Assembly: GCA_041690355.1 (NCBI GenBank)
Contig: JAWLHK010000007.1
Span: forward strand, 1 to 64,000
DNA from: a bacterium
GTDB lineage: Bacteria > J088 > JAWLBW01
Direction of reading: 5' to 3'
Length of the DNA stretch: 64,000 bases
Shown: in pieces, positions 31,897 to 38,926 of the stretch
How the letters are laid out: every line of letters begins with the position of its first letter
How positions within the stretch are numbered: position 1 is the stretch's first letter
The notes under the pieces: model-generated
What the model was told of the DNA's origin: nothing
Database searches by the model: none
The model's input: the letters and a program-made list of their open reading frames with translations, nothing else
Made by a program: the position numbers and the translations under genes

Positions 31897-32769
31897 ATGG
31901 GTTCAGAAGGCTACATCCTCACCGAAGACATCCGCGACATCGACGGCAATCCGGTGCTCCCGGCGGGGAGCGTCGTCAACAAGACCGTGCTCAAGAAGGT
32001 CGAGCAGAGCCGTCCGGCGTTTGCCGGCGTCGAACTCAAGACGCGCGTGCTCTATGAGGATTTCGAGTCGCTGGTCGAAGAAGCGAGCTACAAAGCGACG
32101 CTGCCGACGAACGACGTCCGCAACAAGGTTCTGCGCTACCTGGGCCGCATCACGCTCCCCGAGCAGCTGTTCCGCGAGATTGAGCAGATGCGCGACCAGA
32201 GCCTCATCGTTTATCACCACACGCTGGCGACGACCTTTCTGGCGACCCGCCTCGTGCTCGAGTACATCTTCTTCGCCGACGATGTCATCAAGGTCGCCTC
32301 GGCGGCCCTGACGCGCGACGTGGGCATGACGCGGCTCCCCGCCGAGCTGCTCAAGAACACCGACCACCTGTCGAAGCAGGAGTATCACCGCATCAAGCGC
32401 CACCCCATCGTCTCGATGGTGCTGCTCACTCACTACCTGGGCGACGGCCTGAATTCGCTCGTCGGCCTGCGTCATCATGACGGACGCAAGCGCGGGGGCA
32501 ACCCCAGCAAGCTGATGGATCTGATGACGATGGTCGACATCTTCAACGCGCTCATCTCGCCGCGCACCTTCCGCACCCGCGCCTTCGACGTGCGCGGCGC
32601 ATTGGATGTGCTCACCGAGATGGTCAAGAAGGGCGAGATGAACGAAGACCTGGTCAAGCTGCTCGTGGCCACCTACCGCAAGGGAAACGAGCGGGCGCGC
32701 CAGATCGTGCTCTCGGGAGAGAAGCTCGGATACGCCCCGACCGAGAACTTCTACGGCGTGGATTCCTGA
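31897..32769 (+). CDS. HD-GYP-like protein with degenerate catalytic motifs
   Basis: YHHT, ALTRDVG (HD to RD), KRHP, RHHD, GGNP, VDIFNALISPRTFR; it is the 3' part of the 28351-32769 track ORF. Confidence 0.75.
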   Translation: MGSEGYILTEDIRDIDGNPVLPAGSVVNKTVLKKVEQSRPAFAGVELKTRVLYEDFESLVEEASYKATLPTNDVRNKVLRYLGRITLPEQLFREIEQMRDQSLIVYHHTLATTFLATRLVLEYIFFADDVIKVASAALTRDVGMTRLPAELLKNTDHLSKQEYHRIKRHPIVSMVLLTHYLGDGLNSLVGLRHHDGRKRGGNPSKLMDLMTMVDIFNALISPRTFRTRAFDVRGALDVLTEMVKKGEMNEDLVKLLVATYRKGNERARQIVLSGEKLGYAPTENFYGVDS

Positions 32770-32816
32770 CCTACGGATTTTCGGACACACGACGCCGTGG
32801 GTGATCGCTCGGCCGC

Positions 32817-33197
32817 CTATGCCTGCATGGCCCGCGAAACCCGCCCGACGAAGTCTTCGACGCTGAACGGCTTGGTGATGTAGTCGCTCACCCGGCGGAC
32901 CTGGAGTGCGTCCTGGATCTCTTTTTCGCGGATGCGCGCCGAGAGGATGATGACCGGCACGTCGCGGTGCTTCTCATCCTGGCGGATCTGGCCGTAGACG
33001 TCCCAGCCGCTCAGCCCGGGCATCATCAGATCGAGAATCACGAGCGCGAAACGGTTCTCGTTCAGCGCCGACGCGATGTCGGGGCTCGTGTTCGCCTGAC
33101 AGACTTCATACCCCTCGTGCTGGAGAATGCTCGTCACGAGATTGGTGATGCCCGGCTCGTCGTCGATGACGAGTATGCGCTGCCGTGCTGCAGTCAT
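32817..33197 (-). CDS. Single-domain response regulator (CheY-like receiver)
   Basis: ILVIDDE, LDLMMPGLSG, ILSA, YITKPF. Confidence 0.92.
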   Translation of the reverse strand: MTAARQRILVIDDEPGITNLVTSILQHEGYEVCQANTSPDIASALNENRFALVILDLMMPGLSGWDVYGQIRQDEKHRDVPVIILSARIREKEIQDALQVRRVSDYITKPFSVEDFVGRVSRAMQA

Positions 33198-33255
33198 CGC
33201 CTGTATTCTAGCAGGGTCCCGCCCGAATCCAAACCCCGAAATTCCCGCTCCCGGA

Positions 33256-35067
33256 CTAAAGATCTTCGACGCGCCGACGGCTCAACGCGTCATGCACCGC
33301 CGAGTCCATGATCCGCTCGGCGAGGTCGCGCGTCGCGTCGTTGAGTGCGTCATAGGCCCGCTTGATGACGCGGAAGTCTGCGTCTTCGCGCGCGCGACGC
33401 AACGCGGCGACGGCCGCCTCGATCCGTTCCCGCTCCGCCGCCTCGAGGGCGTGCCCTGCGGAGAGCGACTTCTCGGCAGCCCGCAGAAGCGCGTCGGCTT
33501 CGACCTGCATCTCGGCGCGCATGCGGGCGCGGTAATCGTCTTCGGCGTGATCGTAGGCTTCTTCAATCAGACGGTCGACCTCGTCTTCGCTGAGACCGTG
33601 GGCGGGCACGACCTCGACCTGCGCCTGGCGGCCGCTGCGCTCTTCGACGGCACGCACCGTGAGAATACCGCTCTCGTCGACGGAGAACCGGACGCGGATC
33701 TTCGCCATGCCGGCGGCCATGGGGGGAATGCCGCGGAGCACGAAGCGGCCGAGCAGCCGGTTGTCGGCGGCCAGCTCGCGCTCTCCCTGCACGATGCGGA
33801 ACTCGACCGCCGCCTGTCCGTCGGCAAAGGTGGTGAACCGCTCCGCGGCCTCGGCCGGCACCGTCGTATTGCGTTCGATGAGCTTCGCGACGGCGCCGCC
33901 CATCGTCTCGAGCCCGAGCGAGAGCGGAATGACGTCGAGCAACAGCGTGCCCCCGCCCCCGCCGCCGAGTATCTCGGCCTGCACCGCCGCGCCGAGGGCG
34001 ACGACTTCGTCCGGGTCGAGCTCCGTGTGCGGCGTGCGGCCGAAGAAAGCCGCCACCCGCTCGCGCACGGCGGGGACGCGCGTCGAGCCGCCCACCAGCA
34101 CCACCTCGTCGATCTCGGAGGGCTCGATGAGCGCATCGCGCAACGCACGGCGCACGGCGGCGAAGGTCCGCTCGAGGAGCGGCGCAATCGCCTGTTCGAA
34201 GCGGGCCCGGTCGACCCGGGCTTCGATGCCAAAGCCGTCGACCGATAGGCGGAAGATGTCTTCGTTCTGTGCGCTCAGGGCAATCTTGACCCGCTCGGCC
34301 TCGGCGCGCAGCGCCTGGCGCACGAGCGGCGACTGCAGGCGAGGATCCTCGGGGGCGATGGCGGCCCCGGCGAGGACGTCGCCGTAGAGGGCCGCATCGA
34401 AATCGTCGCCGCCGAGAAACGTGTCGCCGGCCGTCGACAGAACGCGGAATACCCCTTCCTGCACGTCGAGCACCGAGATGTCGAAGGTTCCGCCGCCCAG
34501 ATCGTAGACGGCGATGGCCCCTTCCTTCTTCTCGTGAAGGCCGTAGGCGAGCGCGGCCGCCGTCGGTTCGTTGAGGATGCGCAGCACGCGCAGGCCGGCG
34601 ATGCGGCCGGCATCGCGCGTGGCCTGCCGCTGGGTGTCGTCGAAGTAGGCGGGAACGGTGATGACCGCTTCGGTCACCGGTTCCCCCAGCGCCGCTTCGG
34701 CGCGCTCGCGGGCCGCCTGGAGAATCAGGGCCGAAATCTCCTGCGGGGTCGCCAGCCGCTCACCAAGGCGCACGGCGAGCCGCCCGCCGTCGGTCGCGAC
34801 CGTGTAGGGAAGATGCGGGAGCACATCGGCCGCCTCTTCGACGCTCTTGCCCATGAGCCGCTTGACAGAGGCCACCGTGCGTTCAGGGTGCTCCATGCGC
34901 AGGCGGCGCGCTTCGCCACCGACAACCGTGCTTCCGTCGGGAAGAAACGTGACGACCGAAGGGATCAGGCGTTCTCCGTCGGCGCCGGCGAGCACGGAGG
35001 GACGGCCGTCGCGCGAGACGGCGGCCAGCGTGTGGGTGGTTCCGAGATCAATACCGATGACCGGCAC
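33256..35067 (-). CDS. hscA: Fe-S protein assembly chaperone HscA (Hsp70)
   Basis: [47 protein letters not shown] start after AGGAG; isc context. Confidence 0.9.
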
Positions 35068-35082
35068 GGTGCGGTGACTCCT

Positions 35083-35094
35083 GGGGGGGGGGGG
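35083..35094. repeat. G12/C12 homopolymer directly upstream of the hscA SD
   Basis: Twelve consecutive G on the plus strand. Confidence 0.9.
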
Positions 35095-35154
35095 AGCGGA
35101 AATGCGGCGGCGCACCCGGCATTCAGGGGCGCCGCCGGCGGAATGCGGCGGGCG

Positions 35155-35676
35155 TCAGAGCGCCTGCTTCGAGTTCTGAATTTTCTCCTGCAGCATGAGC
35201 AGCGCATCGAGAACCGTCTCGGGGCGCGGCGGGCAACCGGGGATGTAGACGTCGACGGGAATGATCTTGTCGATCCCCTGCACGACCGAGTAGTTGCGGT
35301 AGAAGCCGCCCGAGGTGGCGCACGCGCCGAACGAGATGACCCATTTGGGCTCGGTCATCTGGTCGTAGATGCGCCGCAGGATGGGGGCCTGCTTGTGGAC
35401 GATCGTGCCGACGACCATGAGCAGGTCGGCCTGGCGCGGCGAAAAGCGCGGCAGGGCCGCCCCGAAGCGGTCGGTATCGTAATGGCCGGCGCTGGTCGCC
35501 ATGTACTCCATGCCGCAGCAGGCGGTCACGAAGGGGTAGTTGAAGAGCGAATACTTGCGGGCCCAGCCGATGGCCGCGTCGAGTTTCGTCGTGACGGCGA
35601 CCGCCTCCTGTCCGGGACGGGCCGGCGTGGCGCCCCCCGACGGGGCCGGGGGCCGCGTGTTGGGATTGGCGAACAT
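35155..35676 (-). CDS. nuoB: NADH-quinone oxidoreductase subunit B-like 4Fe-4S protein, with no other nuo genes nearby
   Basis: [30 protein letters not shown]; all four N2-cluster cysteines present. Confidence 0.9.
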
Positions 35677-35686
35677 GAGAAAACTC

Positions 35687-36280
35687 CTAGACCGCCCGCT
35701 GCATGCATTCGCCCTCGAGGTCGCGCAGCAGCGAGCCGAAAAACGTAAGGCGTTGCAGATGCGCCGCTATCCGCCCGAGCGCTTCAATGCGCCCCGGGCC
35801 GGCAGGCAGCGCGGCGAATTCCGCGTCGATCGCCGCTCGGGCGTCGGCCGCGCGATGTTCCACTTCGTCGCGCACCCCCTGCCGGTCTCCGCCGTCGGCG
35901 CGTTCGCGCAGGGCGAACTGCTCGGCGACGAAACCGGGGTCGGGTTTCAGCGACGCGGGGGCGGGTCCGCCTTCGAGCGCCACCAGCCGGGCCGCGCGCC
36001 GCAGCGGGTCGCGCAGCGTGGCATAGGCGTCGTTGACGAGCGTGCTCAGCCGCCGCGCGGCGGCGGCGTCGTCGGGCCGGCGATCCGGATGCACGAGACG
36101 CGAAGCCCGCAGATAGGCCTTCTCGAGGTCCGGGCGCCGCAGCGCATACGCCCTCGGCAGCCCGAGGATGCGGAAGGGATCGCAATCGGCCACGCCGCGC
36201 AACGGCTGAAGCGCCCCGCAGGCTTCGCAGGCGACCGGGGTCGCGAGCGCGGCGGCGCAGGCAACGCAGGCGCTCATCAC
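35687..36280 (-). CDS. hscB: Co-chaperone HscB (J domain) with N-terminal CxxC...CxxC
   Basis: CVAC..CEAC, HPD motif, [14 protein letters not shown]. Confidence 0.85.
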
Positions 36281-36615
36281 TCCACCATGAACGAGGTGCC
36301 GCAGCCGCAGGCCTGCACGACGTTCGGGTTCGAGAAGGTGAATTTACGGTTCAGGACGCTGGTGCCGCCGTAGTCGATCTGGGTGCCGTTGATGAACAGG
36401 TAGCTCTTGCGATCGACGAGCAGCCGCAGGCCTTCGGATTCCTGCACCTGGTCGAATTTCGTCGGCGCCTTGTCGAAGGAGAGGTTGTAGCTCATCCCCG
36501 AACAGCCGCCCCCTTTGACGCCGATGCGCAGGTAGGCCTCGGAGGGTTCGAGCCCCTCTTTCGTCATGGCGTTCCGGATCGTTTCGGCCGCGGCCGCCGT
36601 GAGGGTCACCGCCAT
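36277..36615 (-). CDS. iscA: A-type Fe-S carrier IscA/HesB family
   Basis: GVKGGGCSGMSY, NPN..ACGCGTSF. Confidence 0.92.
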   Translation of the reverse strand: MAVTLTAAAAETIRNAMTKEGLEPSEAYLRIGVKGGGCSGMSYNLSFDKAPTKFDQVQESEGLRLLVDRKSYLFINGTQIDYGGTSVLNRKFTFSNPNVVQACGCGTSFMVE

Positions 36616-36617
36616 GA

Positions 36618-37040
36618 TCAGCTGCCCGCCTTCTCGGCCCGGGCAGAGCCGTGTTTCAGCTTGTAGTCGTCGATGGCCGCCTTGATGGCGTCTTCGGCCA
36701 GCACCGAGCAATGGATCTTGACGGGCGGCAGCGCCAGCTCGGCGTGAAGGTCTTCGCTGCGGATCTCGGCGGCCTGATCCAGTGTGCGCCCCTTGAGCCA
36801 CTCGGTGGCGAGCGAACTGGAGGCGATTGCAGAACCGCAACCGAACGTCTTGAACTTCGCATCTTCGATGACGCCGTCGCGCACCTTGAGCTGCAGCTTC
36901 ATGACGTCGCCGCAGTCTGCCGCGCCGACGATCCCCGTGCCCACCGAGGGGTCCGAGGCGTCGAGGCTGCCGAGGTTCCGGGGGTTTTCTGCGTGTTCGC
37001 GTGCCTTGTCGCTGTCAGCCATGTCAGCCATGTCAGCCAT
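36618..37040 (-). CDS. iscU: Fe-S scaffold IscU
   Basis: ENPRNLG, CGDVMKLQ, FKTFGCGSAIASSS, LPPVKIHC. Confidence 0.95.
   Translation of the reverse strand: MADMADMADSDKAREHAENPRNLGSLDASDPSVGTGIVGAADCGDVMKLQLKVRDGVIEDAKFKTFGCGSAIASSSLATEWLKGRTLDQAAEIRSEDLHAELALPPVKIHCSVLAEDAIKAAIDDYKLKHGSARAEKAGS
37014..37040 (-). repeat. Perfect (ATGGCTGAC)x3 tandem repeat at the iscU start
   Basis: Encodes MAD-MAD-MAD. Confidence 0.9.
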
Positions 37041-37057
37041 GATCGTTTGTCTCTCCC

Positions 37058-37489
37058 TTACGCGATTTCCGATTGCACGCCTCCGAGGCGGATGAACTCA
37101 TCGAGCGTCATGTTGCGCACGAAGTCGACGAGCTGCTGATTGAGCATCCGCATGGAGCTGCGGATCGAACAATGACCGATAAGGCCGCAGCACCCGGTCT
37201 CACGCGCCTCGCAGCAGGGGGTCAGGTTCATGGGCCCTTCGACGGCCGAGACGACCTCGCCCAGGCGGATCTTGCCGACGGCCTGTTCGAGCGTGTAGCC
37301 GCCCGTGGCCCCCCGGCGCGTGGCGATGAGGCCGTTGCGCGCCAGCGACTTGAGGATATTCGCCGTCAACGAGAGGGGAATCGCGTTATGTTCGGCGATT
37401 TCCCGGGCGCTCACCGGCGTACCCGTCTTGCCGTGCATATAGACGAGGGCGATGAGGCTGTACTCGACTTTGCGCGTGACCTGGAACAT
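37058..37489 (-). CDS. iscR: Rrf2 family regulator (IscR-like)
   Basis: EIAE..IP..L, RRGATGGYTL, AVEG, Cys-rich C-terminus; first gene of the isc operon. Confidence 0.8.
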   Translation of the reverse strand: MFQVTRKVEYSLIALVYMHGKTGTPVSAREIAEHNAIPLSLTANILKSLARNGLIATRRGATGGYTLEQAVGKIRLGEVVSAVEGPMNLTPCCEARETGCCGLIGHCSIRSSMRMLNQQLVDFVRNMTLDEFIRLGGVQSEIA

Positions 37490-37492
37490 GCA

Positions 37493-37526
37493 ATTGGCAC
37501 CGTTTTAGTACCATTTCATCATACCA
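37493..37526 (-). promoter_or_regulatory. Extended -10 (TGgTATGAT) plus imperfect palindrome, candidate Rrf2 operator
   Basis: ATTGGCAC-N7-GTACCATT at 37493-37515, between the -10 element and the ATG. Confidence 0.45.
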
Positions 37527-37535
37527 GATCCGCAA

Positions 37536-37566
37536 ATTGACGATTTACGATTGACGATTGACGATT
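37536..37566. repeat. TTGACGA heptamer array (4+ units)
   Basis: TTGACGA TTTACGA TTGACGA TTGACGA TT. Confidence 0.9.
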
Positions 37567-37569
37567 TTC

Positions 37570-37909
37570 AGAAAAAAAACCAGTCTTGTCCAGAATCGGT
37601 TCAGCGCGTGACCGTTCGGCCTGAGGAGCCGGGCCTTGGAAATCGAGGTTCAATTCGGACGGCATCGTCTCGCAAGGTTGTCGGCCCCGGCGTCTCGAAG
37701 GCTCAGAGCCGCATGAACACCGGGATCCAGAGCTTCAGAACACGCAATTGCTGAGGTGGCGAGCAAGATCCTGCAGACATTCTGACCCCTCGACAGGCGG
37801 GGCGACAGGATCAGCGGAATCTCAGAATTCCAGCTGCCATCTGTTCCCTTTCCTGGACAGCACTGTAAAAAACCAGGAAAGAACCAAGGCGGCGCTTGCC
37901 AGGGTCCGC
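37570..37909 (-). pseudogene. Possible decayed four-helix-bundle gene remnant
   Basis: No credible intact ORF; minus-strand fragments ERTL.., DSADPVAPPVEG, DLARHLS, IACSEA loosely echo the family; lies between inverted heptamer arrays. Confidence 0.25.
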
Positions 37910-37937
37910 TCAATCGTCAATTGTCAATCGTCAATCG
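37910..37937. repeat. TCAATCG heptamer array (4 units), inverted partner of the 37536 array
   Basis: TCAATCG TCAATTG TCAATCG TCAATCG; contains the epimerase stop codon. Confidence 0.9.
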
Positions 37938-38926
37938 AGGTAGCGGTTTTCGCGGAGCCAGGCGTAGGCGCGCATGATGGCGTCATCGATGGGGCGGGGC
38001 GCGAAACCCAGCTCGCGCGTCGCCTTCGCGTGGCTGAAGTGGAAGTAGTAGCGGCTCGCGCGCGCGAGCGTCAGGTCGAGACGCGGCTCGCGGCCGCTCA
38101 TGCGCCCCGACCACTGGCCTCCGAGCCCCCCCATCCAGACAAAGGGATAGGGGATGCGCGTGCGCGGCGCCCGTGCCCCGACGAGCGAGGCGATACGCTC
38201 CAGCACCGCCTGGTGCGTCAGGTTCTCGCGGGTGAGGATATACCGCTCTCCCCGGCGCCCCTTTTCCCAGGCGAGAATCTGCCCGGCACAGACGTCCTCG
38301 ACGTCGACGTAGGAACTGCCGCCGCGCACGAAGCCGGGAACCTTGCCGCGCACGACCTCGACGATCATCCGCCCGATGTTCGGCCGCACATCCCAGCTGC
38401 CGAACATGGAGCCGGGGTTCACGATGACGACGTCCTGCCCGGCGGCCGCGGCCTCGCGGCAGACGTCTTCGGCCGCGCGCTTGGTAATGGCGTAGTGAAA
38501 GGGAAACCGATCGAGGTTGAACGGCGTCTCTTCGTCGGCCGTCACGCCGGGCTCGAGCGAGCCGGCCACCGCCGATACCGTGCTGGTGTGCACCACGCGC
38601 GGCACACCCGCCTTGAAAGCGGCGACGAGCACGTTGCGAGTTCCCTCGACATTGGTGCGCCACATCTCGCCCGGATCCGGAACGAACATGCGCGTATCGC
38701 CCGCGACGTGAAAGACGACGTCGCAGGCGCGCATGGGCCCCTCGAGGCTGGCGGGATCGCGTACGTCGCCCTGAGTGTACTCGACGTCGAGCCCTTCGAG
38801 CGGAACCCGCCGGCTGCCGGGACGCACGAACACGCGCACCCGGACGCCGCGCGCCAGCAGCGCGCGCACGAGGTTGGCGCCGACGAATCCGGTGGCGCCG
38901 GTGACGAAAGCCCGGGGTGCAGCCAT
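37931..38926 (-). CDS. NAD-dependent epimerase/dehydratase (dihydroflavonol reductase/HpnA-like extended SDR)
   Basis: TGATGFVG, NVEGT, HTST, YAITK. Confidence 0.88.
   Translation of the reverse strand: MAAPRAFVTGATGFVGANLVRALLARGVRVRVFVRPGSRRVPLEGLDVEYTQGDVRDPASLEGPMRACDVVFHVAGDTRMFVPDPGEMWRTNVEGTRNVLVAAFKAGVPRVVHTSTVSAVAGSLEPGVTADEETPFNLDRFPFHYAITKRAAEDVCREAAAAGQDVVIVNPGSMFGSWDVRPNIGRMIVEVVRGKVPGFVRGGSSYVDVEDVCAGQILAWEKGRRGERYILTRENLTHQAVLERIASLVGARAPRTRIPYPFVWMGGLGGQWSGRMSGREPRLDLTLARASRYYFHFSHAKATRELGFAPRPIDDAIMRAYAWLRENRYLD

Follow-up and report, generated by a model that had tools for sequence, protein, structure and literature searches.

A second, conserved nuoB gene in an isc-like operon headed by an Rrf2-type regulator

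Introduction

In the classical isc operon of the E. coli type, the genes of the iron-sulfur cluster (ISC) assembly system stand in the order iscR-iscS-iscU-iscA-hscB-hscA-fdx-iscX. Complex I, whose NuoB subunit carries cluster N2, is among the largest consumers of iron-sulfur (Fe-S) clusters; to our knowledge the matching of its assembly to cluster supply in bacteria is known mainly from E. coli. Here we describe an ISC-like operon that carries the gene of such a client, a second copy of nuoB (hereafter nuoB2), in a bacterium of the GTDB lineage Bacteria; J088; JAWLBW01. The operon occupies positions 33256-37489 of the stretch of DNA that was analysed (hereafter the window: 64,000 nucleotides, positions 1 to 64,000 of the forward strand of contig JAWLHK010000007.1, assembly GCA_041690355.1). 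The evidence, which comes from sequence comparison, tips the balance towards nuoB2 being a second, selectively kept structural gene for the NuoB of complex I, placed in an Rrf2-headed operon together with an A-type carrier.

Set beside the classical isc operon, the window keeps the order of Rrf2 regulator, iscU, iscA, hscB and hscA, with an HscA that passes its subfamily cut-off, but it lacks iscS and fdx, has nuoB inserted, and begins with a regulator that falls under the cut-off of the IscR equivalog model. NuoB2 itself resembles the regular NuoB (Nqo6/PSST) encoded on contig C3 of the same genome in that it passes the family models and shares the four cluster cysteines, the N-terminal helix motif and 135 of 139 core residues; it differs in lying between hscB and hscA instead of nuoA and nuoC, in standing behind an Rrf2-type regulator, and in having ends of its own.

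Two other systems offer partial parallels. In the nif clusters of nitrogen fixers, the IscA/HesB gene places an A-type carrier beside its client. The present locus likewise has an IscA-family carrier next to a specific Fe-S client under what would be shared control, but the client here is a duplicated housekeeping respiratory subunit rather than a specialised enzyme's main copy. Ind1/NUBPL, an Mrp/NBP35-type ATPase, is the mitochondrial Fe-S delivery factor specific to complex I. It is alike in the idea of a dedicated supply line for complex I clusters, but it belongs to a different family, the window operon contains no such gene, and nothing here shows client specificity of IscA. No published nuoB inside an isc operon was found in a literature search that left subscription journals largely uncovered.

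Results and discussion

The operon and its nuoB gene

Six tightly packed genes on the minus strand (33256-37489), named with Pfam and NCBIfam profile models scored against their curated cut-offs, make up the locus. The first encodes an IscR-like Rrf2 regulator (37058..37489; 143 aa; PF02082, 106.5 bits), and is followed after 17 nt by the scaffold gene iscU (36618..37040; 140 aa; PF01592, 150.4 bits against a cut-off of 22) and then by iscA, which encodes an A-type carrier (36277..36603; 108 aa; PF01521, 55.4 bits; TIGR00049, 108.2 against 58.8). The start of the gene for the hscB-like J-domain co-chaperone (35687..36280; 197 aa; PF00226, 35.3 bits) overlaps the iscA stop by 4 nt. The hscB stop codon, a TAG at 35689-35687, is separated by 10 nt from the ATG of nuoB2 at 35676 (35155..35676; 173 aa; PF01058, 96.6 bits against a cut-off of 27; C-terminal tail QNSKQAL), which has a GGAG 8 nt upstream; a further 39 nt separate nuoB2 from hscA, the gene for an Hsp70-type chaperone (33256..35115; 619 aa; NF003520, 725.3 against 620). 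This gene set and the 10-nt gap had been described in an earlier, sequence-only reading of the same DNA, and the coordinates and both model collections bear them out. That reading had also remarked on the lack of iscS and fdx, and we found no match to the IscS or fdx_isc models on the window's contig (iscX was not searched for).

The genome assembly (4.64 Mb, 42 contigs, 100% complete) contains exactly two matches to PF01058, the NuoB family. One is nuoB2 and the other lies within a complete 14-gene nuoA-N operon on contig C3. The possibility that nuoB2 is the genome's only nuoB, left behind by a split nuo operon, therefore falls away. While the C3 paralog sits among nuo genes, nuoB2 is flanked by hscB and hscA, and it has no other nuo gene beside it, as had been noted earlier: all matches to NuoA, NuoC and NuoD in the genome are confined to C3.

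By profile score NuoB2 is an ordinary member of its family, passing TIGR01957 (215.3 against 142.7) and NF005012 (218.1 against 116) and lying just under the cut-off of NF011392 (270 against 271). The four cluster cysteines that had been read from its sequence are confirmed by the alignment, with the CC in TACCGME and the single cysteines in FGACATSGG and PGCPP. They also occur in the other three NuoB copies of the family, two of which come from the sister genome introduced below. An N-terminal segment had been singled out as peculiar to NuoB2, but the C3 operon copy has it letter for letter, and the best-matching NuoB proteins of other genomes (L094 and L096 among them) carry closely similar versions. 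As both copies have it, this segment is a trait of the lineage or of a NuoB subfamily.

Between the two paralogs of this genome, 150 of 168 aligned residues (89%) and 410 of 462 nucleotides are identical, and the likeness ends at the borders of the conserved coding core. Within a core of 139 residues, the paralogs differ at 4 positions here and at 1 in the sister genus, and at the level of DNA (417 nt) at 42 and 55 positions, respectively. NuoB2 departs from the operon copy in its first approximately 20 and its last 6 residues, and the isc-linked copy of the sister genome has conserved counterparts of these ends.

A partner for NuoB2 other than complex I was sought in the genome. Only one gene of the NuoD family was present, and no NiFe-hydrogenase large subunit was found, so that the only partner of that kind is the NuoD of complex I. 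Moreover, had nuoB2 been released from complex I, its subunit-contact surfaces should have lost constraint, which is not what is seen.

Conservation of the locus in the sister genome

In the genome set analysed, the phylum is represented by five species genomes, of which one other, from a different genus (G001, hereafter the sister genome), belongs to the same family. As that genome is 97% complete and in 430 contigs, absences from it are to be read as "not found" and not as proven. It also has two nuoB genes, one in a nuoA-B-C-D-E arrangement and the other in a locus that is syntenic with the window, where the genes for an epimerase, the Rrf2 regulator, iscA, nuoB, a response regulator, an HD protein (on the opposite strand) and plsB are found. 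Absence of the adjacency from relatives would have spoken against a special arrangement; instead, the family's one other genome has the Rrf2-iscA-nuoB linkage as well. The constant module is the Rrf2 regulator, the A-type carrier and NuoB.

The sister genome yielded no iscU, hscB or hscA with the queries used, at this locus or elsewhere. The best alternatives there were a NifU_N match of 84 bits, similar in strength to one that turned out to be SufU in the genome of the window, and matches at the level of general J-domain proteins for HscB and of DnaK for HscA. Because the window has the canonical gene order, loss of these three genes in the sister genome would be more economical than three gains in the present one, an argument drawn from gene order alone. 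Searches of the sister genome's spacers with blastn and tblastx for remnants of iscU, hscB and hscA gave matches at chance level only.

This distribution bears on the proposal, made in the sequence-only reading, that nuoB2 encodes a stand-alone 4Fe-4S protein of Fe-S assembly, acting as an electron donor in place of ferredoxin or as a carrier, store or sensor together with IscA or IscU. The proposal draws on the fact that the gene is encoded with isc and not nuo genes in both genomes of the family, on an operon without fdx in a genome where no ISC-type ferredoxin passed its cut-off, and on the protein's own conserved N- and C-terminal ends. We nevertheless consider it quite unlikely. The gene is kept in the sister genome, where the queries used detected no IscU-type scaffold, HscB or HscA, and a role in IscU-based assembly cannot explain that retention. 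The core differs from the complex I copy at only 4 and 1 of 139 residues, and the two copies evolve at the same rate (see below), which would not be expected if the contact surfaces for complex I were no longer needed. In addition, N2 is the complex I cluster of highest potential and hence a poor reductant, which weighs against a donor function.

Evolution of the nuoB pair

The family's four copies came out as one clade (support 99/97) when 31 NuoB sequences were placed in a tree, and the extra copy was therefore derived from the lineage's own nuoB and not imported. Within this clade the paralogs grouped by genome (97/91 and 87/35). We compared synonymous (dS) and nonsynonymous (dN) divergence over a stretch of 144 codons that includes part of the tails. 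The dS between paralogs was 0.49 in this genome and 0.95 in the sister genome; between genera it was 0.76 for the isc-linked orthologs, 0.82 for the operon orthologs and 0.94-0.96 for the cross comparisons. The corresponding dN/dS ratios were low, at 0.09 and 0.02 for the paralogs of this and the sister genome and 0.07 for the isc-linked orthologs. The dN between genera was 0.053 for the isc-linked and 0.060 for the operon copies, showing the same rate for both, neither relaxed nor accelerated.

Of the synonymous sites in the aligned part, 13 united the copies of one genome, 9 united those of one locus and 5 grouped them crosswise. A run test on the 99 polymorphic sites (5000 permutations, six pairs tested) found a longest concordant run of 14 for the pair of this genome (P = 0.008), which suggests gene conversion between its paralogs; no conversion tract was detected by this test in the sister pair, where the longest run was 6 (P = 0.31). 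Taken with the dS values, the site groupings and the synteny, the run test points to a single old duplication before the two genera split, later patchy conversion, and strong purifying selection on both copies.

The signs of conversion also raise the question of whether nuoB2 is a redundant duplicate that has no function of its own, landed in the operon by chance and has been kept alike by conversion. The grouping of paralogs by genome in the protein tree, the significant run test for this genome's pair and the excess of synonymous sites grouping by genome over those grouping by locus (13 against 9) are what such a duplicate would leave behind. This explanation is unlikely, however, given that the reading frame is intact with a dN/dS of 0.07 between the orthologs of the two genera, that the position is conserved in the sister genome, and that the locus-specific tails described below are conserved in 10 and 6 sequences. 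In the sister pair, a dS of 0.95 with no detectable tract and a difference at only 1 of 139 core residues requires purifying selection on the copy itself.

The C-terminal tails follow the locus. The isc-linked copies end in QNSKQAL and QHSKQSF (first type), and the operon copies in QRQPQKI and QRSPQKF (second type). A protein search returned 13 more NuoB sequences at 79-93% identity, one of them the operon copy of the sister genome. Of the 20 sequences compared, 10 ended in the first tail type and 6 in the second, while 4 had neither tail; two N-terminal types (MNP..N and MDLN) likewise recurred across the related sequences. In a tree built from the core only, which was poorly resolved, the tail types did not cluster (5 changes for each, where shuffling gave a mean of 5.1).

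These recurring ends, together with the separate predicted promoter and its own regulator, would also fit an isoform subunit that gives a functionally different complex I under particular conditions, its distinct termini altering assembly, stability or partner contacts. We regard this as very unlikely, since the differences are limited to short and probably flexible ends, the core and the cluster ligands are the same, and none of the other nuo subunits tested (NuoA, NuoC and NuoD, all on C3 only) was found in a second copy.

Regulator and predicted promoter

The protein encoded by the first gene passed the Rrf2 superfamily model (95.1 against a cut-off of 73.3) and scored 66.5 with the IscR equivalog model, below the cut-off of 207.55. 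Its three cysteines were invariant in all three aligned sequences (those of the window, of the sister-genome ortholog and of the Rrf2 protein linked to the SUF genes).

Upstream of this gene we identified a putative promoter and operator (37494..37526, minus strand), whose function would be to control the operon. A predicted extended -10 element, TGgTATGAT, lies at 37526-37518, and is followed by the imperfect inverted repeat ATGGTACTAAAACGGTGCCAA at 37514-37494, which ends 4 nt 5' of the Rrf2 start codon. At the same place the sister genome has TGcTATAGT and then ATAGGACTAAAATAGTCCGAA, with 16 of 21 positions common to the repeat of the window. A search of the 4.64 Mb genome with the shared operator pattern found a single occurrence, its own site, and no regulon could therefore be drawn. 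The candidate -10 at 37526-37518 was not among the sites returned by a generic promoter scan. The conserved -10 element and the genome-unique inverted repeat fit an autoregulated operon.

If nuoB2 is indeed a second gene for the complex I subunit, the order of events might be as follows. The regulator would sense poor Fe-S status, and the operon would be derepressed; the A-type carrier and fresh NuoB apoprotein would then be made together; and NuoB2 would be built into the complex I that also takes up the regular copy, sustaining the assembly or replacement of the Q-module that bears N2. The duplication, its conservation under purifying selection, the synteny and the lack of an alternative large-subunit partner are observed. 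We infer from the sequence that the genes are co-transcribed, that they respond to Fe-S status and that NuoB2 is incorporated into complex I. Coupling of complex I maturation to IscR-type control had been put forward as the alternative in the sequence-only reading. Among its proposals this one fits best, its link between a complex I gene and an Rrf2-headed operon being upheld and its regulatory part standing as conjecture.

Several points weigh against reading nuoB2 as a second source of the same subunit. The copies might not be interchangeable, given their two conserved tail types and distinct N-termini, and the link of the tail type to iscA rests on the two genomes of the family (2 of 2) and not on the 8 further metagenome proteins with the first tail type. 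Conversion is able to hold a copy close to its paralog even where selection for identical function is lacking, and the paralogs of the sister genome share genus-specific residues though no tract was detected there, which is only partly explained. Finally, in the pattern search the shared inverted repeat was absent upstream of the nuo operon and elsewhere in the genome, and there is no sign that complex I as a whole is under coordinated control.

The locus is an ISC-like operon carrying a client gene whose product has not diverged, and this arrangement is real, conserved and testable. Kept across two genera, it provides a natural way into two questions, which carrier loads N2 and whether assembly or repair is limited under Fe-S stress by the supply of NuoB. 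Having only regulator, carrier and NuoB, the sister genome serves as a deletion series made by nature, in which this module stands apart from the IscU-HscBA machine. The pair is also a case of paralogs near-identical in protein at high synonymous divergence, with locus-specific ends. There is no pointer to a new protein family or to new chemistry.

The remaining isc genes

The product of iscU scored 191.8 with TIGR01999, the IscU equivalog model, 0.6 bits under its cut-off of 192.4. It was nevertheless the sole IscU-type match among the five genomes of the phylum, the other matches being weaker (55-94 bits); the one of these that was examined, on contig C11, is SufU. The IscA protein is 69% identical to the product of the syntenic gene in the sister genome, and the two isc-linked IscA proteins paired (support 100/98) in a tree of A-type carriers (29 rows). 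Their position relative to the carriers of ISC operons and to the phylum's other carrier was not resolved, and the tree gives no evidence on the origin of the operon. For HscA, the NF003520 model was passed and the score with TIGR01991 was 704.1 against a cut-off of 708.55. For the hscB-like protein, HscB models were the best matches but remained under their cut-offs (60.6 against 198 and 37.6 against 46.75). Its N-terminus carries a CxxC-x9-CxxC arrangement (residues 5-21) ahead of the J domain, a possible metal-binding extension that resembles the cysteine-rich N-terminus of eukaryotic HSC20.

Fe-S assembly elsewhere in the genome

The IscS model gave 8 matches genome-wide, none of them on the window's contig and none past the cut-off. 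The best, on another contig, scored 349.8 bits against a cut-off of 643.2; this IscS-like desulfurase belongs to a sulfur-relay-like cluster (C6:123000-131000) that also encodes an ArsR-rhodanese regulator, an MFS-rhodanese fusion and a DsrE-like protein. A third IscS/NifS-like frame (C40:4286-5395) contains one in-frame TAG and may be a pseudogene or reflect an assembly error. The single match to the fdx_isc model, on contig C4 inside a frame of 498 aa, reached 39.5 bits against a cut-off of 132.1. A full SUF operon is present, comprising genes for an Rrf2 protein, sufB, sufC, sufD, sufS, sufU and sufT.

In E. coli, ErpA, a carrier of the A type, matures complex I's Fe-S subunits (PMC11327457), and SUF is poor at maturing complexes I and II (PMC8593673). 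With the full SUF operon of this genome, these observations count in favour of reading nuoB2 as a second complex I gene placed beside an A-type carrier. One tentative reading of the present genome, which we find possible though doubtful, is that SUF serves as the general machinery, and that the Rrf2 regulator, the A-type carrier and the tail-variant NuoB form a dedicated, Fe-S-controlled cassette for building or replacing the N2 module of complex I. If this were true, the cassette would be a bacterial, client-specific Fe-S line for complex I that resembles Ind1 in purpose, is made of ISC parts, and has its client encoded within the operon.

Wider relatives

Of the genomes from the phylum's other family, one had a single, ordinary nuoB and two were without a NuoB match. 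The latter (G002, 98% complete, and G004, 84%) gave no match at E <= 1e-20, and some members of the phylum may have no complex I.

Beyond the phylum, HscA was used to retrieve 80 loci, mostly from Planctomycetota and Chloroflexota and at 45-57% identity, with up to 6 kb of DNA on each side and less at contig ends. The genes iscU and iscA lay upstream of hscA in 23 of the 80, and a nuoB gene lay near hscA in none of them within these limits. In all five relatives tested, a true IscS was encoded between iscR and iscU.

A metagenome scan with NuoB returned at least 598 stretches, of which we inspected the best 80; these were at most 78% identical, and the proteins at 79-93% identity mentioned above were not among them. 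Among these best 80, 70 adjoined other nuo genes, 4 had an iscA-like gene upstream in a different arrangement, and none had iscR, iscU, hscB or hscA beside NuoB. In the four loci with the iscA-like gene (L152, L158, L195 and L196), it was followed by folB, then by a nuoB-nuoD pair without nuoA or nuoC, and then by unrelated genes; one of the four also had a MerR gene before nuoB-nuoD. The closest NuoB proteins from outside the phylum, L236 (G021:C13) at 74% and L237 (G007:C24) at 70%, were solitary, with no nuo neighbour in 13 kb. The first is the sole NuoB match of its genome (G021), and has genes for planctomycete-type cytochrome domain proteins nearby.

Flanking sequences

Directly 3' of hscA is a terminator-like hairpin (33235..33255), the sole such site in 32500-38200; as shuffled sequence gave a mean of 3.4 sites, this is a weak indication. 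The next gene downstream encodes a response-regulator receiver protein (32817..33197, minus strand; PF00072), a neighbour that is conserved in the sister genome. An Rfam scan of 32500-38200 gave no match at E up to 0.1.

On the other side, between the epimerase gene and the Rrf2 promoter, lies an element of approximately 400 nt (37530-37940) whose 26-nt inverted arms consist of tandemly repeated heptamers, (CGATTGA)n. The genome has 70 sites with heptamer tandems of this kind, and copies of the inner approximately 220 nt of the element, 77-86% identical, were found on contigs C15 (twice), C11, C14 and C27. The syntenic spacer of the sister genome is only approximately 116 nt long. The element looks like a dispersed repeat similar to a miniature inverted-repeat transposable element.

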